A stretch of DNA of 64,000 nt from an uncultured Candidatus Saccharibacteria bacterium (GCA_964353135.1 CAYGTV010000001.1:18696-82695); one strand, 5' to 3'; positions 22,248 through 38,427 are shown, counted from the first letter of the stretch. Numbers and translations are program-made. The notes: generated by a model from the letters alone, not told the origin.

Positions 22248-24200
22248 ATGATCGTAAACTACAACTGGCTCAAAGAATACGTGGGAGAAAAACTTCCTGA
22301 ACCGTCAAAGGTGGAAGAGCTTTTAACTGAGCATGCGTTTGAAATCGAAGGAGTAGAAGAGGTCGCTGGTGAAACGGTAATCGATGTCGATGTGCTACCA
22401 AACCGTTCGTCTGACTGTTTGTGTCACCGGGGGATTGCTCGAGAGCTCGCTACTATCCTAGATATACAGCTTGAAAAAGATCCGTTAGCAACCGAACCGC
22501 AATTAGCAGAGACTGATAAAATCAGTGTAAACATCGCAGATACAGAAGCCTGTCCACGCTTTAGTGCTTCACTAGTTACAGGGATCAAAGTTGGTGAATC
22601 ACCAGAGTGGCTGAAAGTTCGCCTGGAATCACTTGGGCAACGCAGCATCAACAATATCGTCGATGCAACCAACTACGTCATGTATGCAGTAGGGCAGCCA
22701 TTGCATGCCTATGACGCAGACCTCTTTCCACAGGTAGACGGCACATGGCAGTTTGGTGTGCGGTATGGAAATGAAGGGGAGGTGGTAGAAATCCTTCCCG
22801 AAGGAGGAAGTATAGAACCTCGGCAGGTTATGTGTACAGGGACAGAGCTACTCATCGTTGATGAATCGAGCAACACACCAATTGGGCTCGCTGGCGTAAA
22901 GGGTGGGCAGTTTGCCGGTGTGCATGCAGGTACGACTAACATCATCATCGAAGCGGCTCACTTCCACCCAACTATCACAAGAAAAACAGCTCGCCGGCTG
23001 GGGATCGTTATCGATGCTTCTAAGCGATTTGAAAATGAATGCGCGCGGGAACTGCCACCGTACGCCCAGTTTGAAATCATCAAACTCATCAAACAAATCG
23101 CTGGTGGAGAATATCAGGGGACAATTGATGTCTATGCAGAAGAAAAAAAGAATCCTGCTGTTGACCTGAGAGTGTCAAAAACCAATGCGCTCCTTGGGCT
23201 TGAATTAACCCAAGCTCAAATTAAAGATATTATTTTGCGAACAGGCAGCACGGTAGAAGAAAAAAAACCAGGAACACTTGCATGTACTGGTCCCTGGGAA
23301 CGAACCGACCTGTTGATCGAAGAAGACTTTATTGAAGAAGTGGGTCGTCTGTATGGACTATCTAACATCATTTCGATCGTGCCTGGTACAGACACTGTGC
23401 CAGCAGTAAATCCGCGACAGCACTACTCAGAAAAGATTCGACAGACACTGCTTGGTCTAGGGTTTTCTGAAGTCATCACCTCGTCTTTTCAGAAAAAAGA
23501 TAAAATCCAACTGCGTAACGCTCTTGCTAGTGATAAGTCGTACATCCGCAGCACTCTGGCAAAAAACATGCACCAAGTCCTGGATGCAAACTTCTCACAC
23601 ACGGACCTATTAGGTATTCGTTCAGTCCAAGCATTTGAAATTGGAACTGTGTTTGAAAAGACTGAAAGTGGAGTAGGAGAACATTTGTCACTCGCGATTG
23701 GAGTACGACAAAAAGGGGGAGGCTATACTCCAAAAGACGACGCACCACTTCAGGCAGCTATAGCAGAACTGCAAGAAACACTCGGAGCAGATACTCCAGC
23801 TAACTGGAGTATCGAGAAGGGAGTAGCCGAAGTCAGCTTGTCTGAAGTAATTGATTCACTCCCAGTTCCTGAATCATATGAAGCGCAGGTAGAGCGAGTA
23901 GCTTCTACCTACAGTCCTGTCTCACCTTATCCAGCCATGGCTCGCGACATCGCACTTTGGGTTTCAAATTCTCCGGGGGAGGATTTGAAAAATGATGTGT
24001 TGCAGACTTTAGAAAGTGCTGCTGGTGACCTATGTGTCCGCATTGATCTATTTGATGAATTCACCAAAGACGGCCGAACTTCGTATGCCTTCCGACTAGT
24101 GTTCCAAGCATCTGACCGTACGTTAACTGACACCGAGGTGGGAGAAGTAATGGAAGAAATAAACAGTGTAGTGCGAGATAATAAATGGGAAGTCAGATAG
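22248..24200 (+). CDS. pheT: phenylalanyl-tRNA synthetase beta subunit (short form)
   Basis: N-terminus MIVNYNWLKEYV matches the PheT start; B3/4 and B5 regions are recognisable; 650 aa, about 150 aa shorter than typical bacterial PheT. Confidence 0.85.
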   Translation: MIVNYNWLKEYVGEKLPEPSKVEELLTEHAFEIEGVEEVAGETVIDVDVLPNRSSDCLCHRGIARELATILDIQLEKDPLATEPQLAETDKISVNIADTEACPRFSASLVTGIKVGESPEWLKVRLESLGQRSINNIVDATNYVMYAVGQPLHAYDADLFPQVDGTWQFGVRYGNEGEVVEILPEGGSIEPRQVMCTGTELLIVDESSNTPIGLAGVKGGQFAGVHAGTTNIIIEAAHFHPTITRKTARRLGIVIDASKRFENECARELPPYAQFEIIKLIKQIAGGEYQGTIDVYAEEKKNPAVDLRVSKTNALLGLELTQAQIKDIILRTGSTVEEKKPGTLACTGPWERTDLLIEEDFIEEVGRLYGLSNIISIVPGTDTVPAVNPRQHYSEKIRQTLLGLGFSEVITSSFQKKDKIQLRNALASDKSYIRSTLAKNMHQVLDANFSHTDLLGIRSVQAFEIGTVFEKTESGVGEHLSLAIGVRQKGGGYTPKDDAPLQAAIAELQETLGADTPANWSIEKGVAEVSLSEVIDSLPVPESYEAQVERVASTYSPVSPYPAMARDIALWVSNSPGEDLKNDVLQTLESAAGDLCVRIDLFDEFTKDGRTSYAFRLVFQASDRTLTDTEVGEVMEEINSVVRDNKWEVR

Positions 24201-24367
24201 TCAAAAGGTCTAGTAATTCTGTCTGGGCTTAAAGCCAGAATTGAGACATAAATTCAGAATAGTCGTTCACTCCTTTCTTCATTTAAAACGACGCTCACTG
24301 ATGAGACAGTGAACGCCGTGATGGAACAGGTGAATAGTGCAGCAGAAGAACGTGGTTGGGAGGTGCT

Positions 24368-24610
24368 CTAACTCATAGTGGTAATAAGAAGTGATTCTTC
24401 CTTTGTCACAAGTTGCACAGCACAGCCTTTCCATAGCCAGTCCAGAGCTATTGTTTGGAGGTTCAAAGGATCGTCTGGCTTTAGCTCGTCAGGAGTAACA
24501 TCTGCACGACTTAAATTAGCAAACAATACTAATTTTAGTCGATCGACGTCAGCTTCTGTCTGAAAAACCGCTAACAAATATTTTCCTTCTGCATTGATTG
24601 TATTCGTCAT
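24368..24610 (-). CDS. hypothetical small protein (80 aa)
   Basis: Clean ORF with an AAGGAAGG ribosome-binding site 9 nt upstream of the ATG on the minus strand; no recognisable domain. Confidence 0.35.
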   Translation of the reverse strand: MTNTINAEGKYLLAVFQTEADVDRLKLVLFANLSRADVTPDELKPDDPLNLQTIALDWLWKGCAVQLVTKEESLLITTMS

Positions 24611-24725
24611 CAGAATCTACCTTCCTTTATGGGTCGCTTTTCTCAAAATACTACAGTTTTCAACACTGCACAAGTCCGAATTAATGTTATAATAGCTGCA
24701 TTATTTAGCTTATTCACTATTCCGC

Positions 24726-26810
24726 ATGCCAGAGAAAAAACCAGCCAAAAAGAAAGAAAAAGGATATGACGCGTCGTCCATCTCGGTCCTTGAAGGACTA
24801 GAGCCAGTACGAAAGCGTCCTGGTATGTATATCGGGACCACTGGCCCTGAGGGACTACACCACATGATCTGGGAAATCTTCGACAACTCGCGCGATGAGG
24901 CGATGGGTGGGTTTGCTGATCGAGTAGAGGTAACGCTGCTTCCAGATAACTACATCCGGGTAGTCGACAACGGTCGGGGGATCCCGGTTGATATTCACAA
25001 ACAAACCAAAGTCTCGGCACTTGAAACAATCATGTGTACCCTGCATGCCGGAGGAAAGTTTGGTGGTGACGATTCAGGCTACAAGGTTTCTGGGGGTCTT
25101 CACGGTGTGGGTATTTCGGTGGTAAACGCATTGTCGACTCATACACGGGTAGACGTGCACAAGGATGGTGATCACTACGTCCAGGAATACAACATCGGTA
25201 TCGCTAAAGCCCGGGTGAAAAAACTTGGTAAAACTAAACACAACGGAACGATTGTGATGTTCCAAGCTGACCCGACTATTTTCCCGGAAATTAAATTTGA
25301 ATGGAAGAAAATCGTCAACCACTTGCGGCAGCAGGCGTACTTAGTAAAAGGGATGCGGATGAGCGTGATTGATGCACGTGAGAGTGACGCTAAATTAGAT
25401 GCAAAATCACTCGAGGACACCATTTACCTAGGTGATAGTCATTTGTCTGTACCGCACCAAACCTTCTACTTTGAAGGTGGTCTACGGTCGCTAGTGGCTT
25501 TCAATAACTCATACCAAAAGCCAGTCCATAAAAATATTTTCTACGTAGAAAAAAATGACGTGTCACCAGAAGTGCTGACAGTTGAAGTCGCGCTGCAGTA
25601 TGTGGACGACATATCTCCTCGTATCACTGCGTTTGCCAACAACATCTACAACCCAGAACACGGAACCCATATCACTGGTTTTAAAACTGCGTTGACCCGA
25701 ACCCTCAATAACTACGCCAAGAAAGGAAACTTTTTCTCAGTCAAAGATAAAGATGCCGGTTTTACTGGAGACGACGTACTAGAAGGAATTACTGCCGTGG
25801 TTTCGGTTAAAATGCCTGAGATCCAATTCGAGGGCCAGACAAAGGCTAAACTCGGTTCAGTCGAGGCGCGAGGAGCAACCGAAAGTGTGTTTGCAGAAGC
25901 TTTTGCTGCGTTTCTAGAAGAAAACCCAGACGACGCCAAAGCGATGATCAACAAGGTGATCCTTGCGGTAAAAGCACGAAAAGCAGCCAAAGCAGCCAAA
26001 GATTCTGTACTGCGTAAGGGTGCCCTTGAAGGGATGTCGCTACCAGGAAAACTGGCCGACTGTCAGAGTAAAAAAGCAGAAGATAGTGAACTGTTTATCG
26101 TAGAGGGAGACTCAGCTGGAGGATCAGCGAAAATGGGTCGTGACCGAAAGACTCAAGCGATTTTGCCATTGCGAGGAAAAATTCTCAACGTTGAACGAGC
26201 ACGAATCGACAAGATGCTCGCGAGTGAACAGATCAAAAACCTCGTGATTGCGCTGGGAACCGCTATCGGTGATGTGTTTGATGTATCTAAACTGCGATAC
26301 CACAAAATCATCATCGCCACTGACGCGGACGTCGACGGGGCACACATCCGGACCCTACTTTTGACGCTTTTCTTCCGCTACTTCCGACAGCTGATTGATG
26401 AAGGGTACGTATACATCGCGATGCCGCCGCTATACAAAATCCAAAAAGGAAAGGAAACTCGTTATGCTTACACCGAAGATGAAAAATTTGCAGTCCTAAA
26501 AGATATGGGAGAAGAAGTGACTGATGAAATCGACGAGAGTTCCGATGAGGAAGGGGAGGATGATGATGCAGAGGTGGTTGCCAAAAAAGGTGGAAAGGCT
26601 CGTATTCAGCGGTACAAAGGTCTGGGAGAAATGAACGCCGAGGAGCTTGGTGAAACAACCATGAACATCAACAACCGAATCCTCAAGCAAGTAACGATCG
26701 ATGACGCGCTGGCAGCTGACAAGGTGTTTGATATCTTGATGGGGACAGATGTACCGTCGCGAAAATCCTTTATTCAGAACAACGCCAAAACAGCAAATCT
26801 GGATATTTAA
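24726..26810 (+). CDS. gyrB: DNA gyrase subunit B
   Basis: GHKL ATPase N-terminus (LEGLEPVRKRPGMYIG), Toprim domain (EGDSAGGSAK), and an acidic insertion DEIDESSDEEGEDDDAE near the C-terminus. Confidence 0.9.
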   Translation: MPEKKPAKKKEKGYDASSISVLEGLEPVRKRPGMYIGTTGPEGLHHMIWEIFDNSRDEAMGGFADRVEVTLLPDNYIRVVDNGRGIPVDIHKQTKVSALETIMCTLHAGGKFGGDDSGYKVSGGLHGVGISVVNALSTHTRVDVHKDGDHYVQEYNIGIAKARVKKLGKTKHNGTIVMFQADPTIFPEIKFEWKKIVNHLRQQAYLVKGMRMSVIDARESDAKLDAKSLEDTIYLGDSHLSVPHQTFYFEGGLRSLVAFNNSYQKPVHKNIFYVEKNDVSPEVLTVEVALQYVDDISPRITAFANNIYNPEHGTHITGFKTALTRTLNNYAKKGNFFSVKDKDAGFTGDDVLEGITAVVSVKMPEIQFEGQTKAKLGSVEARGATESVFAEAFAAFLEENPDDAKAMINKVILAVKARKAAKAAKDSVLRKGALEGMSLPGKLADCQSKKAEDSELFIVEGDSAGGSAKMGRDRKTQAILPLRGKILNVERARIDKMLASEQIKNLVIALGTAIGDVFDVSKLRYHKIIIATDADVDGAHIRTLLLTLFFRYFRQLIDEGYVYIAMPPLYKIQKGKETRYAYTEDEKFAVLKDMGEEVTDEIDESSDEEGEDDDAEVVAKKGGKARIQRYKGLGEMNAEELGETTMNINNRILKQVTIDDALAADKVFDILMGTDVPSRKSFIQNNAKTANLDI

Positions 26811-26828
26811 AAGCTGTACTTTGTTGGA

Positions 26829-26895
26829 CTGCGAAAAAAGCCGCTCACTGGACACTTGTCCCATTCGCGGCTTTTTGCATGCCCGCCGCATACAG
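26829..26895. repeat. structured terminator-like repeat element, copy 1 (downstream of gyrB)
   Basis: About 88% identical over 66 nt to 61775..61838. Outer stem AAAAAGCCGC/GCGGCTTTTT encloses inner hairpin GGACActtGTCC. Flanked by a perfect 20-bp inverted repeat at 26792..26811 and 26899..26918. Confidence 0.7.
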
Positions 26896-26940
26896 TAATT
26901 TAAATATCCAGATTTGCTATCAGGACTTCAAAATACAAAC

Positions 26941-26968
26941 AAAGACCGCGTCTTGGGACGCGGTCTTT
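26941..26968 (-). terminator. rho-independent terminator of the minus-strand surface-protein gene
   Basis: aaagaccgcgtc ttgg gacgcggtcttt hairpin just past the stop at 26986, followed by a T-rich run on the minus strand. Confidence 0.6.
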
Positions 26969-26985
26969 GTTTAAAGAGTTAGTTG

Positions 26986-28050
26986 CTAGTTAGCAAATGT
27001 CACTCGTTGTTCGAATGCATCGTTTCGACTGTTTCGGTCGGTTGATTCGTCAACAGAAACTTCAAATGTATGAGAAGCGTCAGATCCGGCTGCAAAGCCA
27101 ATCGTGAGTACTGCTCGTTCATTTGGTTTTAGTGGGACTTGGACTGGTGAGTTGTACGTACCACCATTTGGAAGTGACACCTCAAATGTCCAGTTGCTAG
27201 AAGTCTTGGTCCCAAAGTTCTTGACTGAGAATTGGATTGCTCCACCTTCGTTAGCCTCTACTGTGCCTGGGACAAACCGGTTGCTTACTATATCACCAAC
27301 AGCGATAAACGAAGTCGATAGGTCTGTGACACCATTTGGGTCAGAAGTAGGGATTTCGTATACAAATTCCTGTTCAAACACTGGTGTGCTTGGCGTTGGT
27401 GTAACTGGAGTGATCACCGCTGGTGTCTCTGGTTCTGGTACGGCTGGCACTTCAGGTTCTACTACTACTTCGTTGGTGAGTTCACCTGAGTCAGTATTAA
27501 ATACAAATCCATTTACTTCCTCGTTGATGATAGTTACCACGTCTGAACCCATTGCTCGTGGTTCGGTGTCGTTTGTTGATAGAAATCCAACACTATATGT
27601 GACGTCAGTGTATCGATTTTTTTCAGATTCAATAGCTACAGTGAGTGATGTTACATCACCGACATTGTAATTTGTGTCACACGCTAGCTGTCGTTCAACA
27701 GTTCCTTCAATTTGGTTGACAGCAACTCCATCAATACAGTCATAGGCAAACACGTATGATCCCCTGGCGTTGGCTGATTCCCATTCAATATCAAGCGCTT
27801 CACCTGTTTTCATGAGTGACGTGTTGCTAGTGACAATAATTGGTTCCATCACGTCATCCTCAACCATTGTTTCAGATGCCTGATCGACTCCTTCTGCAAG
27901 CGAAGCGAGTGATGTCAGGGCGTTAGGGAATAATTGAACTAGTTGAATTGAAAGCCAAGCTAGCAGTAGTACGATAGCGACGAATCCTGCAACAGCAAAT
28001 GTATTGAGGATCGACACTTTCTTTTGTGGTGATACGTTATTTGTTTCCAT
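26986..28050 (-). CDS. membrane-anchored extracellular hypothetical protein (Pro/Thr-rich linker)
   Basis: N-terminal signal anchor; PEVPAVPEPETPAVITPVTPTPSTP linker; beta-rich C-terminal domains; divergent from the sortase gene. Confidence 0.5.
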   Translation of the reverse strand: METNNVSPQKKVSILNTFAVAGFVAIVLLLAWLSIQLVQLFPNALTSLASLAEGVDQASETMVEDDVMEPIIVTSNTSLMKTGEALDIEWESANARGSYVFAYDCIDGVAVNQIEGTVERQLACDTNYNVGDVTSLTVAIESEKNRYTDVTYSVGFLSTNDTEPRAMGSDVVTIINEEVNGFVFNTDSGELTNEVVVEPEVPAVPEPETPAVITPVTPTPSTPVFEQEFVYEIPTSDPNGVTDLSTSFIAVGDIVSNRFVPGTVEANEGGAIQFSVKNFGTKTSSNWTFEVSLPNGGTYNSPVQVPLKPNERAVLTIGFAAGSDASHTFEVSVDESTDRNSRNDAFEQRVTFAN

Positions 28051-28149
28051 AGTTGACGTATAGTAGCATAGATTACACGAATGTCAACATTAAAATGTCG
28101 CTTTGTCTAGGTTGGTCATTGACGGGTAAATCTGTAGGGAAGATAAACA

Positions 28150-28178
28150 TTGACAATTACAATAAATAGTGCTACTAT
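28150..28178 (+). promoter_or_regulatory. sigma70-like promoter of the sortase gene (TTGACA-17-TACTAT), implying a leaderless or very short-leader mRNA
   Basis: TTGACA at 28150-28155, a 17-nt spacer, TACTAT at 28173-28178; the first in-frame ATG of the sortase lies at 28189. Confidence 0.45.
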
Positions 28179-28188
28179 CCTATGCATT

Positions 28189-28884
28189 ATGCATTTTTCT
28201 GACACTGTAAAAGCCATCTGGGCTAATAAAATAAGCTTCTTTGGAGTATTCTTCATTATTTTTACCGTTCTATACACGGTACTTTTCCTAGTTGATTTTC
28301 TCCCAGAGGCACCCGAAGCTAGGCCAGCTACAACCGAAGTAACTGAAGTTGCTTCGGCTGTAGACGTTGCGCCAGTGGTAATCCAGACACCAGCGGTTGC
28401 AGAGTCAGAATTGGTAGCTGAAACAGTCGTTAGTGCATCAGCACCTGATATGCCAATTAGTATTTATATTGAACGACTCGACAAGACAATCGATGTGTTG
28501 AACCCACAATCACGATCAATTGCTGATCTCGATAACGCTCTATTGTCAGGAGTGGTGCGACACCCAGACTCTGCGACACCTAATATTGATGGAAATGTAC
28601 TGATCTTAGGACACTCTAGTTATTTGCCAAATGTTCTCAACAAGAACTTTCAGGCTTTTAACGGCGTTCAAAACCTAGAATGGGGTGATACGATCACGAT
28701 AACTTCAGAAAATGCAGTGTATACCTACCGGGTAGAGCGGGTATATGAAGCACGAGCGAGTGAAATCACCGTTCCAATTGCTGGCGACGCAAAACTACTT
28801 ACTCTAGCGACCTGTGATAGTTTTGGAAGTGTAGATGACCGTCACATCGTAGAAGCCAAGCAAATTAGCGTTGAATTGCTGTAA
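28189..28884 (+). CDS. sortase family transpeptidase
   Basis: N-terminal TM anchor; catalytic His in LILGHSSY; TLxTC-type Cys motif LTLATCDSF; conserved Arg 10 residues downstream (VDDRH). Confidence 0.75.
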   Translation: MHFSDTVKAIWANKISFFGVFFIIFTVLYTVLFLVDFLPEAPEARPATTEVTEVASAVDVAPVVIQTPAVAESELVAETVVSASAPDMPISIYIERLDKTIDVLNPQSRSIADLDNALLSGVVRHPDSATPNIDGNVLILGHSSYLPNVLNKNFQAFNGVQNLEWGDTITITSENAVYTYRVERVYEARASEITVPIAGDAKLLTLATCDSFGSVDDRHIVEAKQISVELL

Positions 28885-28920
28885 AAGCGACATTTTACCT
28901 ACATATATTAGAATACAAAA

Positions 28921-28950
28921 GAAAGCACTTGACAAGAGTGCTTTCTTTTG
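28921..28950 (+). terminator. terminator hairpin after the sortase gene, overlapping the next promoter
   Basis: gaaagcact tgacaag agtgctttc followed by ttttg; the 7-nt loop contains the -35 hexamer TTGACA of the downstream promoter. Confidence 0.5.
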
Positions 28951-28957
28951 CTATAGT
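28929..28957 (+). promoter_or_regulatory. consensus sigma70 promoter (TTGACA-17-TATAGT) driving the small lipoprotein gene
   Basis: TTGACA at 28929-28934, a 17-nt spacer, TATAGT at 28952-28957; the downstream gene has an AGGAG ribosome-binding site 7 nt before its ATG. Confidence 0.5.
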
Positions 28958-29022
28958 ACTAGACATAAAGAAACCAAGATCCTTAGGGCAAAGTGCTCAG
29001 ATCTTCAAACAGGAGACGCAAA

Positions 29023-29400
29023 ATGCGTATTACGACAATTTTGGCAGCAGCTGCTGTATCACTCTCTGCTTGTGCATCGTTTGATGGTTCTCGAGGCATC
29101 ACTGCTGCCTACGTCGAAGGTGATCGGGTCATTGTCGAAACGGTCTCCGGACGTATTGGCGATTTTCCAAAATATCGGATGTGCACATGGGCGCACATCA
29201 ACATCGATCAGGAGGAGAGTTACCGGCTTCGCGCTAACCGCGATTCGACCGAACGGAGTATCCTTGGGGTCACAATCGAGGGTCTCGATTGTCCGTTTGT
29301 CAAACCACGCGAAGGTTCGGGCGGCGGCGGTGTCCGGCAGACAGACTTCGTTGAAGACACAAATCCGACCAATGACCAACCATCACGTGGTCAGCAGTAG
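29023..29400 (+). CDS. small putative lipoprotein (Cys-containing, secreted)
   Basis: MRITTILAAAAVSLSAC is a signal peptide with a lipobox-like LSAC; strong promoter and ribosome-binding site; lies in a local GC-rich stretch (about 60% versus about 45% background). Confidence 0.5.
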   Translation: MRITTILAAAAVSLSACASFDGSRGITAAYVEGDRVIVETVSGRIGDFPKYRMCTWAHINIDQEESYRLRANRDSTERSILGVTIEGLDCPFVKPREGSGGGGVRQTDFVEDTNPTNDQPSRGQQ

Positions 29401-29534
29401 TAAGAATACAACCCCTCCAGCAAAACATCGCTGGTGGGGTTGACTTTTTATATTATGTGTGCTAATCTTGTAGAAATCAAGTACAGGACCAAAGAGACCT
29501 TTGACTTCAAATTTTCACAGCCTTGGAGGGCATC

Positions 29535-30065
29535 ATGGAAAAAATCTATACATTACTGGCAGGTGCTTTCCTTACGGTAATCACTTGTGTCGCCGCCGCC
29601 GCGCCGACAACAGTTGAGGCTCAAACAGCCCCAACCACAACTTCTGAATGTGTTTCAGTCGTTGTCGATCTCTACTGCCAAAAAGCTCATGATGGTCTGT
29701 TTATTGGAGACCGGGAGGTAGAAACCGTTCAAATCACGGTTTGTGCACTTCCCGAACACTGGGCCGCAATCCAACGCCAAGACCCCAACGATTCATGGTG
29801 GGGAGAGGCGCTAGCGGACACAGGCCGCCCTGATCTGCGATGGCTCAAGATCCGAGCAATCAAGGAGCAGTGTCGCATTCGTCATGCACCAATCGGTGCA
29901 CGAGTCGGTACGAGATACCTCTGCCCACCAACAGTCGAGGGTTGGTATTGGACAGAGGTTGTGACTGGACCTGGGACATACTTCATGTCTATTCCGGTAT
30001 CAGACACCACTCCAAATCCAGCCAACCCAGACCCGGATGAGAACGTCCCAGCTCTCATTGGTTAA
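29535..30065 (+). CDS. small secreted Cys-containing hypothetical protein
   Basis: MEKIYTLLAGAFLTVITCVAAAAPTTVEAQ signal peptide; GGAGG ribosome-binding site 7 nt upstream of the ATG at 29535 (the track start at 29523 is TTG); same GC-rich patch. Confidence 0.5.
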   Translation: MEKIYTLLAGAFLTVITCVAAAAPTTVEAQTAPTTTSECVSVVVDLYCQKAHDGLFIGDREVETVQITVCALPEHWAAIQRQDPNDSWWGEALADTGRPDLRWLKIRAIKEQCRIRHAPIGARVGTRYLCPPTVEGWYWTEVVTGPGTYFMSIPVSDTTPNPANPDPDENVPALIG

Positions 30066-30199
30066 GTGAAAAGTAGATCGGCTGTAAAGGCCGATCTACA
30101 TGAATCAAACTGGATTCAGACGAGTTGTTACGACAACTCTTTTAATCCGATTTTATTCGGTGCAGACAAATTTAGAAACAAATTACTTACAATATATTT

Positions 30200-33100
30200 A
30201 TGAAAACAATCTCACAATCATTTATTTTCGCTGGAATCGTACTTGCACTACTTGCTGGTGTATTTGCTTTTTCTGCAATGACTGCTGATGCCTATGGTTC
30301 AAGTTGTGGATCATGTGATGCACCTGACACAGGTGGAGGAAGTATCGGTGGTGGAGGCGGTGGATCTACTCCACCTTCTGTTACACCCCCAGTTTGTGAT
30401 ATCGATGTAGATCTAGACGTTGTAGCAGTTGGAGAATTTTACACCATTGACTGGAATGTTATTTCAGCATCTCCAGTTAACGTATACATCAACGGTGACC
30501 ATGTAGAAAAGACAGGGGAAGCAACTTATGATTTTCTTGCCTCAACACCAGAACTAGAATTTTTCAATCTAACAGCAGAAAATGCTGGAGGTACATGTTC
30601 TGATCGAGTTGAGATTAGAAAAAAAGTAGTCGAAGAAAAGAAATGTGAACTTGAAATCACAAAATCTGTCGACAAGCACTCAGCTACACCTGGAGAAGAA
30701 CTAACGTACGAGATCAAAGTTGAAAACATTGGTACAGCTGACTGTACTGGAGGAGGGGTTAAGATCGAAGACGTTCTAGACACTAACTTTGAGTACGTAA
30801 GTAATACCTACACCAGTAACCTGACAGAAGGCTACGGATCTGCACCCGTTTATACAGCCTCTACCCGAACAATTCGATTCAATGGAAACACTCTTACTCC
30901 AGGTGAATCAGGAACTATCGTACTATTTGGAAAAGTGGCGACACCACACACATGTGGAGACTTTGAAGTAAAAAACCAAGCTTTTGCCACGGCTTTCGAA
31001 CTAGATAACTTTAATGACTGGGTATACAGTAATGTCGTAAAGACTAACGTTGACTACGATTGTGAAGTGCCTGCGCCACTATGTACGTCATTTACAGCTA
31101 CACCTGGAACTCTTCCAGCAGCTGGTGGAACAGTGGTTCTTGATTGGGACCTACTAAACGTAGCGACTGCTGTAATCGACAACGGAGTTGGAGAAGTGCT
31201 TGCTAATGTTGGATCAAATTATGGTTCAGTTTCTGGGTCACAAACAACGGTCGTAACACAATCAACTACATTTACCTTAACGGCAACAGATGTGGACGGA
31301 GACAAAACTACCTGTAAAGCGCCAGTAACTGTACCAACAGACAATCCTACACCACCACAATGTCCACTAGTCGCAAAAGACGGTCGAACAATTGTAAATT
31401 TCTCAGGAATGAAACTGCGAACTGACCGAACTGCTAACGATGCAGTAACAGCAATCCAATCAGCCGCATTCCCAGTTGGGGAGTATGACATCACGCTTGT
31501 TTCTTGGGACGGATACACCAATCGTGTAAACGCTTCACAGCCAAACGAACAGTGGAAACTAGAGTTCATGAACGGTTCAGCAGTGATTGCTGGATCAGGA
31601 ATCATCGGTGATCTAGCTGATAACGTGATCGAAGCAACAAAGATTGAGCAGGTGAACACGGATTTCACGTTAGCAACTGCAGCGACCGGCGTACGAGCAA
31701 TCCACCCATTCTACCCAGCGTCATCACCAAACAGTCTGTACCCAATTTGTGCAGCAATTGATGAAAAACCGAAAGAAGTAGTGCCACCATCATGTGATAT
31801 GTTCACCGCTACACCGGCGACTATCACAGTTGGAGGAACAGCTACCCTTGCATGGGAATCAACCAACGCTGTCCAAGCATTCATCAACAACGCAATCGGC
31901 GCAGTGGATGTAGACGGAACTATCGAAGTGTCACCATTAGCTGATACAACCTACGTCCTAACACTGATCGGTGCAGAAGATAATACTGTTAACTGTAACG
32001 TACCGGTGAAAGTTGTAGATGAGCCAGTCATGGAATGTGTCGCATTTACTGCGAGCCCATCAGCTCTACCAGTAGGAGGTGGAAACACAACTCTTGCGTG
32101 GGAAGTAATCAACGCAGTATCGGTATCAATCGATAACGGTATTGGCGCGGTTGCACTAACTGATACGCGGGTTGCAGCAGTAACAGAGTCAACGACCTAC
32201 ACCCTCACAGCAACTGATGCTGATGGTGATACAGTTTCATGTATCGCGCCAGTGGCTGTAGCTGATCCGGGAGTGTTTACGTGTGAAGACAACGTCTCAT
32301 TCTCTGCAAGTGATACATCTATCACTCGAGGACAAAGTTCAACTCTTAATTGGGATGTAACAGATGCTGATTCAGTATCTATCTCAGGAATTAGTGCTAC
32401 TACCTTTACTGGTTCACAATCAGTATCACCATCAAGTGACACTACCTATACACTGACAGCAACAAAATCAGGCTTTGAAACTATCTCATGTCCAGTAAAG
32501 ATCAACGTATCTACTGGCGGTGGGGGAGGTGGTACACCAACACCACGTTGTGAACTAGAGATTTCTGACACTCGGATCAACGCTGGAGACGAAATCACAC
32601 TAACGTGGGATTCAACTAACGCTCGAGAACTGACCCTAACTGATAACTTTGGCAACACCCTCGTTACGACAGAAGATAAACTAAGTCGTGATAAAGATGA
32701 TTTGTTTGAAGGAAGTATTGATTTGAACCCAACTCGAAACACAACGTATACACTCCTAGTTGAGCGAGGTTCACGAGATCGAGAATGTGAAGTTAAAGTT
32801 GAAATGGATGATGACGTTGTGCTACTACAGGTTCGAGACCAAGCTCCACTAGTGTCAGGTATCTCGCTAACGCAAGTGCCGTACACCGGATTTGAAGCGG
32901 GACCAATCATGACAGTACTGTTCTACATGCTACTTATCACGTGGGCGCTATACATCACCTATGTACTGGTGATGCCAAAAGCACAGCTTGCAATGGTTCC
33001 AGTAAAGAACAGTTCACTGCGAACTAACGAAGACCTCATGCAACATGCAGAGCAAATTCGACCAGATGTGTTTGCCGCCGTATCAGCCGCACCAGTTGTG

Positions 33101-33703
33101 GAGGTACCAGCTAATCTACCGGTTGCGACTACTCATGTAGCGATGCCAGTAGTTGCCGAAATTCCAGACACAAACACAATTGAAAACCAGGCACATGCAT
33201 TGCAAGCACTTATTTCAAGTGATGCGGCGCGAACTATTGCTGCTATGACTAACGAGTCAAACCAAGCAGAAGTGCTACGGAAAATTGTAAATGATGCGAA
33301 GGGACAATTCCCACTAGAAGACGGATGGGTTGTAATCAACCAATCGCGTCTAGCACAAATCACAGATACTACTACTACAACAGTGTCTCCGTCACCAACA
33401 GGTGCTGGTTCACTAGCGGAAGCTATCGTGACTGGTAACGTTGTTGCAGCGTACAATCTAGTTGGCACTCGACCAATGATCGCGCTAGCAGATGCCGCTG
33501 CTGACCTTGATGCAGTGTACCGAATTAAAAAAGGTGCAGACGCAACAGTTTCAGACATGCTTGCTACAGAAACAGAAAATCTTTCAGAAGGAAAGATCGC
33601 AGAAATGATTGCTGCCCTAACTGGAGCCCTCGACGGAACCTACACCGACGAAAGCTCAGCTGTGAAAATGGCTATCATGAAAGCGGTACAGATTGCTGGA
33701 TAA
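30200..33703 (+). CDS. giant cell-surface protein: signal peptide, DUF11-like domain, at least 6 Cys-bracketed Ig-like repeats, VPYTG sorting-like motif plus TM, then a ~230-aa C-terminal extension
   Basis: Signal peptide; KSVDKHSATPGEELTYEIKVENIGTADCTGGGVKIEDVLDTNFEYVSNTYT resembles DUF11/TIGR01451; repeats of the form C..F.A.P......G...L.W...NA....I.NG.G.V......TTY.LTAT...G....C.APV.V; SLTQVPYTGFEAGP followed by a TM helix at about aa 900. Confidence 0.7.
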   Translation: MKTISQSFIFAGIVLALLAGVFAFSAMTADAYGSSCGSCDAPDTGGGSIGGGGGGSTPPSVTPPVCDIDVDLDVVAVGEFYTIDWNVISASPVNVYINGDHVEKTGEATYDFLASTPELEFFNLTAENAGGTCSDRVEIRKKVVEEKKCELEITKSVDKHSATPGEELTYEIKVENIGTADCTGGGVKIEDVLDTNFEYVSNTYTSNLTEGYGSAPVYTASTRTIRFNGNTLTPGESGTIVLFGKVATPHTCGDFEVKNQAFATAFELDNFNDWVYSNVVKTNVDYDCEVPAPLCTSFTATPGTLPAAGGTVVLDWDLLNVATAVIDNGVGEVLANVGSNYGSVSGSQTTVVTQSTTFTLTATDVDGDKTTCKAPVTVPTDNPTPPQCPLVAKDGRTIVNFSGMKLRTDRTANDAVTAIQSAAFPVGEYDITLVSWDGYTNRVNASQPNEQWKLEFMNGSAVIAGSGIIGDLADNVIEATKIEQVNTDFTLATAATGVRAIHPFYPASSPNSLYPICAAIDEKPKEVVPPSCDMFTATPATITVGGTATLAWESTNAVQAFINNAIGAVDVDGTIEVSPLADTTYVLTLIGAEDNTVNCNVPVKVVDEPVMECVAFTASPSALPVGGGNTTLAWEVINAVSVSIDNGIGAVALTDTRVAAVTESTTYTLTATDADGDTVSCIAPVAVADPGVFTCEDNVSFSASDTSITRGQSSTLNWDVTDADSVSISGISATTFTGSQSVSPSSDTTYTLTATKSGFETISCPVKINVSTGGGGGGTPTPRCELEISDTRINAGDEITLTWDSTNARELTLTDNFGNTLVTTEDKLSRDKDDLFEGSIDLNPTRNTTYTLLVERGSRDRECEVKVEMDDDVVLLQVRDQAPLVSGISLTQVPYTGFEAGPIMTVLFYMLLITWALYITYVLVMPKAQLAMVPVKNSSLRTNEDLMQHAEQIRPDVFAAVSAAPVVEVPANLPVATTHVAMPVVAEIPDTNTIENQAHALQALISSDAARTIAAMTNESNQAEVLRKIVNDAKGQFPLEDGWVVINQSRLAQITDTTTTTVSPSPTGAGSLAEAIVTGNVVAAYNLVGTRPMIALADAAADLDAVYRIKKGADATVSDMLATETENLSEGKIAEMIAALTGALDGTYTDESSAVKMAIMKAVQIAG

Positions 33704-33726
33704 TATAATCTAGTAATTGTATAAAC

Positions 33727-33758
33727 AAAAAGCCGGTGCCTTAGGGCACCGGCTTTTT
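33727..33758 (+). terminator. rho-independent terminator after the 1167-aa surface protein gene
   Basis: aaaaagccggtgcc ttag ggcaccggcttttt, a perfect 14-bp stem with an A-run before and a T-run after. Confidence 0.7.
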
Positions 33759-33819
33759 GTTTTAGGCTTATTAAATTATCACGCTGACAGAAAACTCAAT
33801 GCGTATTATGATGTAAGTA

Positions 33820-35607
33820 ATGCGGGCAATCTTATTACTCTTTTTTGTATTTGCGACCTTTGGAGGTTTCTTGATGCAACCACAAACAGCAATGGCTGCA
33901 CCGGCAATATGTGATTTTTTCTATGTCACTCCCCAGGTAGTAGCTCCGGGTGATCCAATTACTTTGAATTGGGAGACTACTGATGCCACATCGGTATTTA
34001 TTGATAATGGCGTGGGTGCGGTTGCGGTCGACGGGACAACGGGTGTAAACGCACCTGGCGCTGTGGGCGAACAGGTATACGAAATGACGCTTACCTATAC
34101 TGCATATGGTGTAGAACGAGTCACTTCGTGTGCAGCTTCGGTGCAAGTGGTGGCTGCGATTACTCCAACCACACCAGTTTGTGATTTTTTCTATGCGTCG
34201 CCTGCAAACGGTAACCCTAGCCAACCATCAACAGTATTTTGGGAGACTACCAACGCAACACAAGTAGAGCTCAACACTGCTGGGATACAACCACTTGATG
34301 GTTCTTTTGGGGTAGATTTTGACTCGGTAGCAGGTTATTTTGCTAGTGGTCTTGATATCAGTAACTTTGATGGAGTGTCTACCACAACAGCGTTTTGTAA
34401 CGCCGAGCTCAACATCTTCTCGCCGACCGCTTTACGTTTTGCACCGTCAGTCGCGACGGTCGCACCAGGCGGAGATTTTGATCTAGAGTGGGATGTTTTT
34501 GGTACCAGCGTGATCACAATTTTTGATGACGACGGTGCAGAAATTTATTTTGAATTTTTTCCAACTAGTAACGATGCTGACAGCCTATCACTAACTGCTC
34601 CAGTTGCGACCGGTACGTATTCATACGTACTACAAATGTATGAACAATTGTCTGAGGGTGATGCGTATGTGTATGCAACCAGTACTGTAACTGTAGGTAC
34701 AGTAGCTCCTTCTCTTCCAATCTGCAACGCATTTACGGCCACCCCAGCTACGTTTGTAGGGAGTGGTACGACGACGTTAAATTGGGATATAGGCAATACT
34801 GAAACCGTTAACATTGATAATGGTCTGGGGCTGGTCGACTTTACAACCATTGGGCCTTCGAATTTGGTTGGTAGTCTCGACGTATTTGTGTCTGCCAATA
34901 CAACCTTTGAACTCACTGCAACTAACCCAGATGGTTCAACGTTATGTTCTGCAGCTGTGTCGGTGACGGATCCTGAACCACAATCGTCAAGTGGAGGATC
35001 ATCTGGTACAAAAGTACCTCAGCCACAGTGTGTGTTTTTTAAAGCTTCTGCTGATGATGTGATTGAAGGGGCTGCAGTTACACTTTCCTTTGAGACTAAA
35101 AATGCTGACTTAGTTACTATTTACGAAGGAAAAGTGTCTGACAATAAGATTGTATACAAGGTGGCACCAGGAGCTAGTAAGGCCGGAGCAGCTGCGGTAA
35201 CTGTCTCCAAGGACTCGACGTTCACATTGGTAGCTGAAAAAGGTCGCCGGTCAGACGAGTGCTCAACCTCGGTTGCTGCCCTTGATCCGTTTGCGTTTGG
35301 AGGAGCAGGTAGAAACGAAGCAGGAATATTACTGACCGAAGTTCCCGAAACTGGATATGAAATGTCATTCGCTACCAAAATAATGCTGTATGTCATGCTA
35401 GCCAGCGGGACGCTGTTCGTACTGTTTATGGTGATGCACGTGGGGCGCCTGGGAATATTTGCTACGCAGTCTACCGTGAAATATGGTCGGTTCACCCCCA
35501 TTTCTGCCGCCGCTGACCACGCTCTGCGTGTGCATCGGACACGTTCGTTGTTGGTGATAGCAGCCTTGGTGGTTTGTGTCGTGTTGCTGGGGATTCAACT
35601 GCTGTAG
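33820..35607 (+). CDS. cell-surface protein with about 5 Cys-bracketed Ig-like repeats and a C-terminal VPETG sorting-like signal plus TM
   Basis: Signal peptide; repeats CDFFYVTPQVVAPGDPITLNWETTDATSVFIDNGVGAV... paralogous to those of the upstream giant protein; LLTEVPETGYE followed by a TM helix and basic HVGRLG. Confidence 0.7.
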   Translation: MRAILLLFFVFATFGGFLMQPQTAMAAPAICDFFYVTPQVVAPGDPITLNWETTDATSVFIDNGVGAVAVDGTTGVNAPGAVGEQVYEMTLTYTAYGVERVTSCAASVQVVAAITPTTPVCDFFYASPANGNPSQPSTVFWETTNATQVELNTAGIQPLDGSFGVDFDSVAGYFASGLDISNFDGVSTTTAFCNAELNIFSPTALRFAPSVATVAPGGDFDLEWDVFGTSVITIFDDDGAEIYFEFFPTSNDADSLSLTAPVATGTYSYVLQMYEQLSEGDAYVYATSTVTVGTVAPSLPICNAFTATPATFVGSGTTTLNWDIGNTETVNIDNGLGLVDFTTIGPSNLVGSLDVFVSANTTFELTATNPDGSTLCSAAVSVTDPEPQSSSGGSSGTKVPQPQCVFFKASADDVIEGAAVTLSFETKNADLVTIYEGKVSDNKIVYKVAPGASKAGAAAVTVSKDSTFTLVAEKGRRSDECSTSVAALDPFAFGGAGRNEAGILLTEVPETGYEMSFATKIMLYVMLASGTLFVLFMVMHVGRLGIFATQSTVKYGRFTPISAAADHALRVHRTRSLLVIAALVVCVVLLGIQLL

Positions 35608-35610
35608 TAT

Positions 35611-35654
35611 AAAACAAACCAGCCGGCGCCCTTGGGCGCCGGCTGGTTTGTTTT
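35611..35654. terminator. bidirectional terminator between the convergent surface-protein gene and thrS
   Basis: aaacaaaccagccggcgccc ttg ggcgccggctggtttgtttt: a long GC-rich stem flanked by an A-run and a T-run. Confidence 0.7.
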
Positions 35655-35676
35655 ATGTGTACACCTCTCCACTTTT

Positions 35677-37428
35677 TTATACGTTTGTCTCCTCAGTTAA
35701 TTTCATTAGGAAATCTTCGATACTCATGGCTACTGATTCACCAGTGTCACGGGACTCAACCGTAACGGTGTTGGCTTCGATGTCTTTGTCACCGATGATA
35801 ACAAAGTAGGGGAGTCGGTCCTTTTTAGCATTACGTACCTTTTTGCCCATAGAGTCATTACTAGTGTCGATCTCTGATCGGAAGCCAGCTGCCTCGAGTT
35901 TATCATGGACTCCTTGTGCATACTCGTTGTGCGCTTCAGCTACGGGGATGACCGCCACCTGTCCTGGCGAGAGCCAGAGTGGGAAGTTGCCAGCAAAGTG
36001 CTCGATCATGATGGCCATAAACCGTTCGAGTGATCCGGCAATAGCACGGTGGATCATGACAGGTGTTTGTTTGTTACCTTCGTGATCTACGTACTCGAGC
36101 CCAAATCGTCCTGGCATCACAAAATCAAGCTGCGCAGTGGCTAGTTGACGTTCCCGTCCAATGGCGTCATAGAACATGAAATCGAGCTTAGGTCCATAGA
36201 AAGCTGCTTCACCCTCAACTCGTTTGTATGGCAGTTCTAGTCGCTTGGCGACATCTTCTAGCATTGCTTCGGCTTTCTCCCAGCCTGCTCGGTCACCAAG
36301 GTAACCCTCTGGATCAGTTGGATCACTCACTGATAGTGACACCCAGAATTTACCCTCTTCGTACATACCTAGTGTTTGGTAGAACTCTTTGATCACGTTC
36401 ACGATCGCCTCGACTTCTTGGTCGATTTGGTCAAACGTGCAAAACGCATGGCCGTCGTCTTGAGTGATGCTTCGCACTCGACCAAGCCCAATCAGCTCAC
36501 CAGCCTGCTCGTCCCGGTACACCATAGTAGTTTCTGCATACCGAATTGGTAGCTCTTTGTATGAGCGAGGTCGACTGTCAAAGATCTGGGTGTGGTGCGG
36601 GCAGTTCATCGGCTTCATGACAAACTCAGCATCACTTTTGCCTTTCACCTTAAACAACTCATCGCCAAACTTTTCCCAGTGACCTGATTTTTTGTACAGG
36701 TCACTTTTTGTTATGTGTGGAATGGTCACTTTTTGATAGCCGTACTTGGCCTGGATCTGCATGATTTTATCTACGACGAGGTCGCGCATGAGGGTGCCTT
36801 TGGGGGTGAACAGGGGAAGTCCAGCGCCTACCAATTCAGAGAACGTAAACAGATCTAACTCCTTGCCAATTTTTCTATGATCACGCTCTTTGGCTTGTCG
36901 CATTTGTTCTTCGTACGCTGCCAGTTCTTCTTTGGTGTCAAACGCTAGTCCGTAGATTCGGGTGAGCATCGGGTTTTTTTCGTCACCACGCCAGTACGCA
37001 CCAGCGATCTTGTCTAGCTTAAATGCATCCATGGTGATCTCTTCTTTTGGATTTTCGACGTGTCCACCTCGGCACAGGTCGGTAAAGTCGCCGCAGGTAT
37101 ACAGCGTGATAGTTTCTCCCTTACTTTCAATTTCGTCGATTAATTCTAGTTTAAATTCATTACCAGCAAATCGTTCTCGAGCAACACTAGCTGATACTTC
37201 CTCGTGGGTAAATTCAGTCCACTTGTTGACCAGCTTCTTCATTCCTTTCTGAATGGATTTCAGGTCTTCTTCTTTTGGTGATTCTCCAGCAGAAAAATCG
37301 ATGTCGTAGTAGAAACCATTATCAATCGCTGGTCCCAGAGTTAGTTTGGCGTGCGGGTACTGCTCAACAACCGCCGCAGCGAGCAGGTGGGCTAGGGTGT
37401 GTCGTTTGTGTTCGAGGTGTTCGTTCAT
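35677..37428 (-). CDS. thrS: threonyl-tRNA synthetase (lacks N-terminal TGS domain)
   Basis: Begins at the N2 editing domain (HTLAHLLAAAV, H-x-x-x-H); class II core and C-terminal anticodon-binding domain. Start chosen at MNEHLEH (37428); the track ORF extends to 37542 without homology support. Confidence 0.9.
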   Translation of the reverse strand: MNEHLEHKRHTLAHLLAAAVVEQYPHAKLTLGPAIDNGFYYDIDFSAGESPKEEDLKSIQKGMKKLVNKWTEFTHEEVSASVARERFAGNEFKLELIDEIESKGETITLYTCGDFTDLCRGGHVENPKEEITMDAFKLDKIAGAYWRGDEKNPMLTRIYGLAFDTKEELAAYEEQMRQAKERDHRKIGKELDLFTFSELVGAGLPLFTPKGTLMRDLVVDKIMQIQAKYGYQKVTIPHITKSDLYKKSGHWEKFGDELFKVKGKSDAEFVMKPMNCPHHTQIFDSRPRSYKELPIRYAETTMVYRDEQAGELIGLGRVRSITQDDGHAFCTFDQIDQEVEAIVNVIKEFYQTLGMYEEGKFWVSLSVSDPTDPEGYLGDRAGWEKAEAMLEDVAKRLELPYKRVEGEAAFYGPKLDFMFYDAIGRERQLATAQLDFVMPGRFGLEYVDHEGNKQTPVMIHRAIAGSLERFMAIMIEHFAGNFPLWLSPGQVAVIPVAEAHNEYAQGVHDKLEAAGFRSEIDTSNDSMGKKVRNAKKDRLPYFVIIGDKDIEANTVTVESRDTGESVAMSIEDFLMKLTEETNV

Positions 37429-37870
37429 AAGTATAGTTTCTAAGGAATTTTCTGGCGAATTAAAATAGGGAAACATCTGCGCGCGACCAATTTTCAAGAA
37501 GCGAATGCGGCTATGAAAATGGAAGTACTCCTGTGGTGACAATGCTCGGAGCGAAGCCGTTGAGTCTTTTTAGTTCACCAGAAGATTACGTACGTCCTTA
37601 TGAATTACATTACTGCTCTCAGCGGCTTCGCCTACGGTAGCCGGCTGCAGATGCTTCGATCAGCAATGTAATTCAACGGACTAAATTGATAAAAGAAAAA
37701 TCGCCCAAGTGAATATACGAAAAATCGTAGACTCACTCGGACGATCAAAAAGTTCCATCGCGGTTCCACCGAGCTTCGGGCAGGTATACCTGCACCGCAC
37801 TTCATTAACAGGTTAGGGGAGTGTTCCCGCGCAGCTGATGATTGGTAGTCATCACAATCCCTGTCTAGCT

Positions 37871-37899
37871 ATCGTACAGCCGATATAGATTTTTGGCAA
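37871..37899 (-). promoter_or_regulatory. candidate sigma70 promoter for the thrS leader (TTGCCA-17-TACGAT on the minus strand)
   Basis: On the minus strand: ttgcca aaaatctatatcggctg tacgat, immediately downstream of the terminator of the preceding minus-strand gene. It implies a ~400-nt leader. Confidence 0.35.
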
Positions 37900-37902
37900 A
37901 TG

Positions 37903-37937
37903 AAAACCGCGCCGGAAACCGGCGCGGATAGCTTTTT
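37903..37937 (-). terminator. terminator of the dnaE-150aa transcription unit
   Basis: ccgcgccgg aaa ccggcgcgg stem-loop; T-rich runs on both strands (gctttttgg on plus, ttttcatttg on minus). Confidence 0.6.
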
Positions 37938-37941
37938 GGTT

Positions 37942-38394
37942 TCAGTATATGATCAACGATGACATTCGCTCTTCACTGATCAATGCGGACCACCCTTGCA
38001 AAAGTCTAAGCGCCTGTTTTTCCTGTTCTTCTGTCTGCATAGCCTGGCAAGCTTCGAGGTTGTCAATTTGGCTACCTACCCAAACAAATGCACCAACTTT
38101 AAACTGACCAAGGTCAGATGTCTCAAACCAATTAGTCTTAAACTGCTGTGAGAAATGAGCCCAGATCACTATTTCTGTAGGATAGGCTCCACTTGATGGT
38201 TTCCAAGCGTAAAGTTCTGCTTTGAGTTTAGCAAGACTGTCGATGCAGGCCTGTAGTGGATCACCACTGTAGTGATCAGTGTACCCAAGGATTTGGCTTT
38301 GGGCGCCCACTGGTGCGGACACTACATCTTCGTGTTGCGGTAGCAGGCAGAAAGGTCTTGAGTGAATTAGTAAGTCTCGATCTTGATTGGACAT
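37942..38394 (-). CDS. hypothetical protein (150 aa) co-transcribed downstream of dnaE
   Basis: The ORF starts 34 nt after the dnaE stop on the same strand and is followed by a terminator; no recognisable domain. Confidence 0.45.
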   Translation of the reverse strand: MSNQDRDLLIHSRPFCLLPQHEDVVSAPVGAQSQILGYTDHYSGDPLQACIDSLAKLKAELYAWKPSSGAYPTEIVIWAHFSQQFKTNWFETSDLGQFKVGAFVWVGSQIDNLEACQAMQTEEQEKQALRLLQGWSALISEERMSSLIIY

Positions 38395-38427
38395 TACGTC
38401 CTCCTTTGTGACTGTTCTAGCTTAAAA

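Follow-up and report, generated by a model that had tools for sequence, protein, structure and literature searches.

A sortase and a neighbouring immunoglobulin-repeat protein with an internal VPYTG motif: a candidate dedicated pair in Paceibacteria

Does a sortase act on large surface proteins that carry a variant sorting motif in their interior instead of at the C-terminus? This question is raised by positions 26986-35607 of a 64,000-nucleotide (nt) stretch of DNA from an uncultured Candidatus Saccharibacteria bacterium (GCA_964353135.1 CAYGTV010000001.1:18696-82695; the whole stretch is called the window), where a sortase gene lies upstream of genes for two secreted proteins of 1167 and 595 amino acids (aa). 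We consider it likely that the locus represents a dedicated cassette of sortase and substrate in the core genome of Paceibacteria, composed of a CARDB protein, the sortase, and an immunoglobulin (Ig)-repeat surface protein that the enzyme would cleave and anchor. The layout in which the surface protein continues behind the motif as a long tail is, judged by sequence comparison, the conserved norm and the ancestral state of a large Paceibacteria family.

Linkage between the sortase and the motif was assessed in 167 related loci of genomes and metagenomes, found either from the sortase or from the motif. The sortase-side search of species-representative genomes yielded 80 loci, all from Paceibacteria-type metagenome-assembled genomes, with sortase identities of 46-74%. 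The motif-side search of metagenome contigs yielded 80 further loci. Only loci with enough flanking DNA were counted, which for the motif side meant more than 3.5 kb upstream. Among 87 genome loci, a same-strand downstream protein with RDQQPLVAGISL[ST]Q-VPYTG-FEAGP, a transmembrane (TM) helix, and a Lys or Arg was present in 74 of the 74 that could be checked. Starting from the motif, a same-strand sortase was found upstream in 36 of 36 metagenome loci. The co-location of the sortase and its substrates, which an earlier reading of the window made from the sequence alone (the sequence-only reading) had pointed out, was thus seen in both search directions. No other candidate client was detected near any of the approximately 120 sortase loci. 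The gene order in four relatives was gyrB, CARDB (divergent), sortase, variable small genes, the Ig-repeat/VPYTG/TM/tail protein, and thrS, and a CARDB homologue directly upstream of and divergent from the sortase was present in 84 of 87 loci. The sortase-substrate pair also occurred in other gene neighbourhoods, in only a few loci (L003, L139).

The sortase and the linked motif proteins

The features of the sortase are as follows.

28150-28884, + strand: sortase; open reading frame (ORF) from TTG 28150, probable start ATG 28189
28231-28293, + strand: N-terminal TM helix of the sortase, residues 28-48
28612-28614, + strand: catalytic His155
28813-28815, + strand: catalytic Cys222
28840-28842, + strand: catalytic Arg231

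The enzyme matched Pfam family PF04203 with 63.7 bits (cut-off 26.6), covering profile positions 1-124 of 125. The triad lies in the contexts LILGH155S, LTLATC222DSF (TLxTC-type), and DDR231, and its His, Cys, and Arg were invariant in 88 of 88 sortase orthologues. The sequence-only reading had named the same residues; its spacing needed correction, as Arg stands nine and not 10 residues after Cys. From its sequence, the window enzyme is a bona fide member of the sortase superfamily with an intact triad, and transpeptidase activity is predicted. The comparison with sortase profiles that had been recommended was positive at the level of PF04203, with no class A-F or GN model reached. The closest PDB entries were the class D sortases 2LN7 and 4D70, with E~1e-7 only. 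The TTG listed as the start, at 28150, falls within a promoter-like site that has a TG extension (TTGACA-17-TACTAT), and the N-termini of the orthologues align to ATG 28189. Together, these observations suggest ATG 28189 as the real start, and the 5' leader behind that promoter-like site would then be very short or absent. The promoter scan did not outperform shuffled sequence (16 sites vs. 14.1 expected), terminator-like sites showed a marginal excess (12 vs. 7.3), and these results were used only for the sortase start and for a hairpin ahead of the 1167-aa gene.

The features of the 1167-aa protein up to its TM helix are as follows.

30200-33703, + strand: candidate main substrate, 1167 aa; signal peptide, DUF11, Ig-like repeats, linker, motif, TM helix, tail
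30200-30292, + strand: signal peptide MKTISQSFIFAGIVLALLAGVFAFSAMTADA, by sequence inspection only
32834-32905, + strand: juxtamembrane linear motif RDQAPLVSGISLTQ-VPYTG-FEAGP, residues 879-902; VPYTG at nt 32876-32890
32906-32974, + strand: TM helix IMTVLFYMLLITWALYITYVLVM, residues 903-925, followed by P-K; family consensus FYxLLxxWALYIAYxLV

DUF11, at residues 151-270, was the sole domain of this protein named by Pfam. Cys-bracketed Ig-like repeats were located at residues ~63-130, 293-379, 528-612, 613-692, 700-770, and 782-874, and about five more were found in the 595-aa protein. The repeats of both proteins are ~85 aa long, each framed by a Cys pair. In the 1167-aa protein, the final repeat was predicted with confidence by AlphaFold2 to be a beta-sandwich, and its Foldseek neighbours were Ig-like (SoxY, CD4, titin). 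Going by this model, the label of Ig repeats given by the sequence-only reading appears to apply at the fold level only. The same reading had spoken of two giant secreted proteins; the lengths and signal peptides agree with this, and "giant" is generous.

The segment SLTQ-VPYTG-FEAGP occupies residues 889-902, and peptides over the motif read SLTQVPYTGFEAGP and GISLTQVPYTGFEAGP. A putative sortase cut, placed from the sequence, would fall between Thr896 and Gly897. The motif is followed by a five-residue spacer, the 23-residue TM helix, and a Lys or Arg. The protein extends 275 residues beyond VPYTG and 242 beyond the helix, in agreement with the earlier observation that the motif and helix are not C-terminal. 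The predicted local distance difference test (pLDDT) score of the AlphaFold2 model was <50 over 27 residues including ...RDQAPLVSGISLTQVPYTG, as for a disordered tether joining the final Ig domain to the TM helix, and ~87 over that helix (model residues 121-143).

The features of the 595-aa protein are as follows.

33820-35607, + strand: second protein, 595 aa; signal peptide, Ig-like repeats, VPETG, TM1, HVGRLG, loop, TM2
33820-33897, + strand: signal peptide MRAILLLFFVFATFGGFLMQPQTAMA, by sequence inspection only
35341-35355, + strand: VPETG of the motif AGILLTE-VPETG-YEMS
35368-35436, + strand: TM1, residues 517-539, followed by HVGRLG and a ~30-aa loop
35548-35604, + strand: TM2, residues 577-595, at the extreme C-terminus

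Here, 88 residues follow VPETG, and the second TM helix reported after the motif was recovered. When the motif and TM helix of this protein were aligned to the main family, L, V, P, T, G, Y, and L proved invariant. A search of 5.8e9 proteins found no orthologue besides the protein itself, and the closest genome (L007) lacks it, which identifies it as a lineage-specific paralogue. The same arrangement of motif, TM helix, G-x-L, loop (~35 aa), and terminal TM helix was seen in second downstream proteins of L038 and L040, where the motif is LPDTG or LPETG, and in L076 a second protein carries VPHTG. When all six frames of the 64 kb were scanned, VPxTG with a hydrophobic stretch behind it turned up only in the 1167-aa and 595-aa proteins, so that the near-identical motif-plus-helix units described earlier, VPYTG and VPETG, are the only two such sites in the window.

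Column conservation among 72 distinct orthologues was >=90% over VPYTG and GFEAG vs. 30-50% in the adjoining Ig domain, a contrast typical of a linear motif that a partner reads. The top 150 included 141 newly retrieved representatives; among them, the motif was VPYTG in 122, LPYTG in five, VPHTG in five, TPYTG in three, IPYTG in three, and LPQTG, MPYTG, and IPHTG in one each. Leu therefore occupied the first position in six of the 141, in addition to the L038 and L040 paralogues. With the paralogues included, P, T, and G were invariant, the first position was mostly V, followed by L, I, T, or M, and the third was Y, H, E, D, or Q. Fixed P, T, and G combined with variable first and third positions is the pattern expected for the pentapeptide recognized by a sortase. 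VPHTG arose independently at least four times, and no sortase column tracked it convincingly (n = 4). The sequence-only reading had held that restriction of the motif to paralogues would speak against a sorting signal. We found it in essentially one orthologous family and the adjacent paralogues, which is not decisive, because such confinement is what a dedicated one-sortase/one-target system looks like.

The cytoplasmic tail and its frame breaks

Two features make up the part of the 1167-aa protein behind the TM helix.

32975-33169, + strand: predicted cytoplasmic linker, predicted disordered; NLP motif ANLPVA at nt 33110-33127
33170-33703, + strand: predicted cytoplasmic tail domain, ~177 aa; alpha/beta and helical subdomains

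Structure prediction of the C-terminal region, one of the checks proposed by the sequence-only reading, returned a confident tail-domain model (pLDDT 86.3) with two subdomains. The alpha/beta subdomain is AAA+ lid-like (ENxAH...LLSSDA...EDGWVVIN), and the helical subdomain reads GSLAEAIVxGN...RPMxALADAAADLD...ALDGTYxDE..AVKxAIMKAV. Similarity to AAA+ lid and clamp-loader delta collar domains was present at the fold level only, with 8-17% sequence identity. At the sequence level, neither Pfam nor PDB gave a match, and the tail has no P-loop ATPase core. The model suggests a cytoplasmic protein-interaction module rather than a clamp loader.

The family is large. The C-terminal 295 residues of the 1167-aa protein retrieved 155 proteins, and all of those with a named source came from the candidate phyla radiation (CPR; Kaiserbacteria, Pacebacteria); protein P0001 was 85% identical over 99% of this region. 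In a search of 1.84e9 representatives, a profile of the 64-residue module matched 558 clusters (50% identity) at E<=1e-3 and 230 at E<=1e-10. Neither the motif module nor the tail has a curated model in Pfam or NCBIfam.

Tail length was surveyed in 148 orthologues with a complete motif-to-stop region. A full tail, with >=230 residues after the motif and the ~180-aa domain, was present in 112. The frameshift or fusion suspected by the sequence-only reading at about 32900-33000 was not borne out by this census, and the window has no A-run at 32975-33000. A further 16 orthologues (L014, L023, L032, L038, L040, L041, L043, L046, L067, L080, L083, L085, L104, L105, L129, L163) have a half tail of 144-196 residues after the motif, ending after the first subdomain (...EDGWVVIN..R...L), which indicates that the two subdomains are separable.

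The remaining 20 have a zero-frame stop 38-106 residues after the motif, and all 20 hold an A7 or A9 run (L003-L006, L033, L034, L042, L044, L050, L052, L060, L062, L063, L070, L077, L081, L125, L132, L134, L147). Past the run, the orthologous linker with its NLP motif continues in the -1 frame, usually together with the tail domain. The correction needed was the same in all 20, namely one extra A or, equivalently, a -1 shift. Even the shortest orthologues keep the NLP motif, which they reach only via the -1 frame. The position of the run differs by lineage, with three sites. The first is directly after the TM helix (VIKKKVS*, A9). The second, shared by a clade of eight loci, lies ~55 codons past the motif (CGAAAAAAAGT), and there the -1 extension ends in a conserved DDTPPNLPIGEKPDYLK. 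The third is just ahead of the tail domain in a marine lineage, with the same A9 in the independent assemblies L003, L004, and L005. Among "stand-alone" tail proteins, the DNA context was examined for one case, the 181-aa proteins of this marine lineage (P0109; L003-L005), and these proved to be the downstream half of an A-run site. A AAA AAG is the classic bacterial slippery heptamer, as in dnaX. By their sequence, the A-runs are compatible with -1 ribosomal frameshifting, transcriptional slippage, or phase variation.

One lineage has retained the tail and lost the ectodomain. The L087 locus (1198-2885; P0085/P0088), like a 15-kb contig of this lineage, has gyrB, CARDB, a sortase with an intact triad, and a neighbouring 328-aa protein from which the Ig ectodomain and VPYT are gone; GF.GAG, the TM helix, and the tail are kept behind an extra N-terminal hydrophobic helix. 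A membrane-tethered tail thus seems to be valuable independent of the ectodomain.

Proposed mechanism and competing explanations

If the locus is a dedicated sortase/substrate cassette, it would work as follows. The substrate would be exported via its N-terminal signal peptide and then held in the membrane by the TM helix, with the basic residue and the tail on the cytoplasmic side according to topology rules. The unstructured, near-invariant ...SL[ST]Q-VPYTG-FEAGP segment would be offered at the outer face of the membrane, where the membrane-anchored sortase would recognize [V/L/I/T]-P-x-T-G and cut between Thr and Gly. The Ig-repeat ectodomain would be moved to an amine acceptor, most likely a peptidoglycan precursor. 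The 595-aa paralogue, with its VPETG, would be a second client of the same sortase. After the cut, the main substrate would leave behind a conserved membrane-tethered module of GFEAGP, TM helix, NLP linker, and the domain resembling an AAA+ lid and clamp-loader delta, and the 595-aa paralogue would leave a TM-loop-TM hairpin. The module presumably has a cytoplasmic protein-protein role, perhaps in positioning the precursor or in reporting on, or coupling to, surface-protein processing.

The most serious competitor, which we regard as unlikely though far from negligible, is that the Ig-repeat protein escapes cleavage and acts as a type I transmembrane adhesin or receptor, its ectodomain remaining connected to the cytoplasmic tail by the TM helix. 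VPYTGFEAGP would then be a stalk element involved in, e.g., oligomerisation, docking to the CARDB protein, or glycosylation, and the sortase would serve other clients and be adjacent through frozen synteny. Six sets of findings lend weight to this explanation, or at least weigh against a sorting signal. The neighbouring genes are nearly as strictly placed as the cassette, with gyrB upstream in 45 of 48 loci and thrS downstream in 30 of 36, and at sortase identities of 46-74% Paceibacteria still share the frozen order pheT-gyrB-[cassette]-thrS-dnaE, so that adjacency alone is weak evidence of function. The ~14 residues upstream of the motif, the five downstream (GFEAGP), and the TM helix are far more conserved than ordinary sorting signals require. 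The LPXTG-anchor hidden Markov models TIGR01167 and PF00746 gave no match at E<=10 to the C-terminal segments of both window proteins, to the 38-residue L077 version, or to the LPETG paralogue of L040. None of the 148 orthologues ends without a cytoplasmic continuation, which leaves the family without any canonical protein that has its sorting signal at the C-terminus, and it could be that the ectodomain and tail need a physical connection. The intact-triad sortase persists in the L087 lineage, where its neighbour has lost the motif. Finally, by its sequence the sortase fits no curated or characterised class A-F or GN: all NCBIfam class models scored below cut-off, with SrtD at 40.1 (cut-off 140), class D at 39.4 (165), class E at 37.1 (160), class C at 23.9 (160), and class GN (TIGR03784) at 18.8 (158). 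What stands of the earlier proposal of an LPXTG-type signal with Val in place of Leu is the signal-like anatomy and the invariance of P, T, and G, and what does not is the match to the signal models and the C-terminal position.

Other findings speak against an uncleaved adhesin. The conserved core is exactly xPxTG, placed five residues before a TM helix and a basic residue, in a segment predicted to be unstructured. Leu replaces Val in some members, and adjacent paralogues have LPDTG or LPETG. The zero-frame product lacks the tail in the 20 A-run loci, which implies that a permanent connection between ectodomain and tail is not obligatory. The sortase loci also offer no alternative client, as noted above.

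A tentative possibility, in which we place little confidence, is that cleavage yields two products, a wall-linked ectodomain and a tethered module whose state (uncleaved or cleaved, present or absent) couples surface assembly to a process in the cytoplasm, with the amount of tail tuned by recoding. The recoding would consist of -1 frameshifting or transcriptional slippage at the A AAA AAG or A9 runs, at three independent positions.

We think it quite improbable that the sortase polymerises or ligates the Ig-repeat protein to another protein (a lysine or the N-terminus of the CARDB protein, or another copy of itself), giving a membrane-anchored fibre or heteromer. The conserved divergent CARDB partner, the Ig-like ectodomains, which resemble those of pilins, and the absence of a sortase class would fit such a reaction, but we found no pilin motif, E-box, or set of multiple pilin genes, and the substrate is a single protein of 450-1450 aa in the different orthologues, not a small pilin. 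In addition, the class C score is far from its cut-off, and the nearest solved sortases are of class D, i.e., wall-anchoring enzymes. A class C pilus locus was rejected, given that score, the presence of one large protein with an occasional paralogue, and no match to a pilin-family Pfam model. PEP-CTERM, PGF-CTERM, GlyGly-CTERM, and similar sorting systems were also rejected, with no NCBIfam match on the C-terminal segments.

That the 1167-aa ORF is an assembly artefact, in which a canonical substrate was joined by false fusion or frameshift to an unrelated downstream gene, can practically be dismissed: the layout is non-canonical and related loci do break frame at poly-A runs, but the same in-frame fusion is found in the 112 full-tail orthologues of independent assemblies, P0001 matches almost the whole region at 85% identity, the window junction holds no poly-A run, and where frames break, the same break recurs independently (L003, L004, and L005, all A9).

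Known systems, neighbouring genes, and other observations

The cassette shares the anatomy of LPXTG and housekeeping sortase systems (class A; class E, LAxTG; class D, LPNTA): a signal peptide, xPxTG in an extended segment, a hydrophobic helix, and one or more basic residues in the substrate, and a membrane-anchored Cys transpeptidase-type enzyme with a His/Cys/Arg triad and a TLxTC-type motif (here LTLATC). Unlike in those systems, Val at the first position is the rule, Tyr is nearly fixed at x, and the signal is internal, with the 88-330 residues after it forming a cytoplasmic domain or a second TM helix. An LPXTG signal has ~30-40 residues from motif to stop, compared with 275 and 88 in the window proteins. 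The membrane remnant is what would be new here, a conserved protein instead of a short peptide, in a system otherwise like that of LPXTG and sortase.

Class GN "marine" sortases (TIGR03784) have an adjacent single target. The cassette resembles these, SrtB-IsdC (NPQTN), and SrtB-AbpA in that one sortase stands beside one cognate target with its own variant motif. The targets of those pairs end with the sorting signal, whereas the substrate here has a cytoplasmic tail, and the cassette differs further in being core-genomic, between gyrB and thrS, with a conserved CARDB partner. The SrtB-AbpA locus of oral streptococci is a dedicated sortase/single-target pair (PMC4974636). In Streptococcus gordonii work, as summarised in PMC11502775, the C-peptide left after cleavage of an adhesin by sortase A is sensed by a histidine kinase, a precedent for a functional membrane remnant of sortase cleavage. 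The remnant described there is an ordinary TM peptide of ~30 residues; the one proposed here would comprise 270 residues and include a folded, strongly conserved cytoplasmic domain, and no kinase is encoded nearby. The tail shares its fold with the AAA+ lid and with domains II-III of clamp-loader delta/tau, and differs from them in having no P-loop ATPase core.

Sortases are enriched in CPR/Patescibacteria, with a sortase family in more than half (PMC6744442). Our literature search found no description of CPR sortase clients, the motif, the tail family, or the recoding sites, and a full-text search for "VPXTG" returned nothing. Because the cassette belongs to the core genome and appears to be nearly universal in Paceibacteria, ultrasmall cells that live by attaching to other cells, its substrate is a good candidate for their main covalently attached surface protein. 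An internal signal followed by a conserved cytoplasmic domain would, if true, extend the definition of a sortase substrate, and predictors that look for the motif at the C-terminus miss the whole family. The recurrent poly-A sites raise the question of dual-isoform expression in reduced genomes.

The remaining genes of the locus are as follows.

26986-28050, - strand: CARDB membrane protein, 354 aa; Pfam CARDB 24.8 bits, residues 254-337
28993-29400, + strand: lipobox ORF; lipoprotein-type signal MRITTILAAAAVSLSAC from ATG 29023
29523-30065, + strand: secreted 180-aa protein with a signal-peptide-like N-terminus, between the sortase and the candidate main substrate

The CARDB protein has an N-terminal TM helix (residues 12-38, nt 27937-28017) followed by an extracellular region, and no C-terminal sorting signal was found in it. 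It may be a third functional component, e.g., an acceptor or docking partner. It also has a conserved juxtamembrane segment, LAWLS.Q...AP.A..SLA. The sequence-only reading had placed the sortase between a divergent protein and the two large ones. The order is as stated, and two small ORFs intervene before the 1167-aa gene. The first has a lipobox, LSAC, after MRITTILAAAAVS, and is preceded by the best promoter-like site of the region (28929-28957, 11/12 matches). No homologue of it was found in 86 related loci, and its membership in the sortase system is doubtful. The 180-aa protein has weak homologues at the same position in L063, L070, L077, and L081 only, and the slot varies across loci.

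In the window, the locus follows pheT and gyrB and is followed by thrS and dnaE on the opposite strand (22248-41673). Genes for GAPDH, transketolase, RF, SMC, RNase R, and rpoB/rpoC lie elsewhere in what is a housekeeping stretch of a Patescibacteria/CPR genome, which also encodes SLT-type and GH3 wall enzymes. The guanine-cytosine content is flat (0.44-0.50), and nothing in it points to a mobile element. Two overlapping genes (380-2182 and 2179-3801, + strand) encode secreted proteins, 600 and 540 aa long, for which Pfam offers essentially no annotation; the 540-aa protein ends in a TM helix and RRREQQ and was rejected as a sortase client, having no PxTG motif. The NusB domain and NUDIX hydrolase domain are fused in one 303-aa protein (43644-44555, + strand), a fusion also called in L002. 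Two adjoining type IV pilin-like genes (45842-46615 and 46665-47258, + strand) carry the N-terminal methylation motif GFT[IL]IE[LI]LV, and L002 has an N_methyl gene at the syntenic position.

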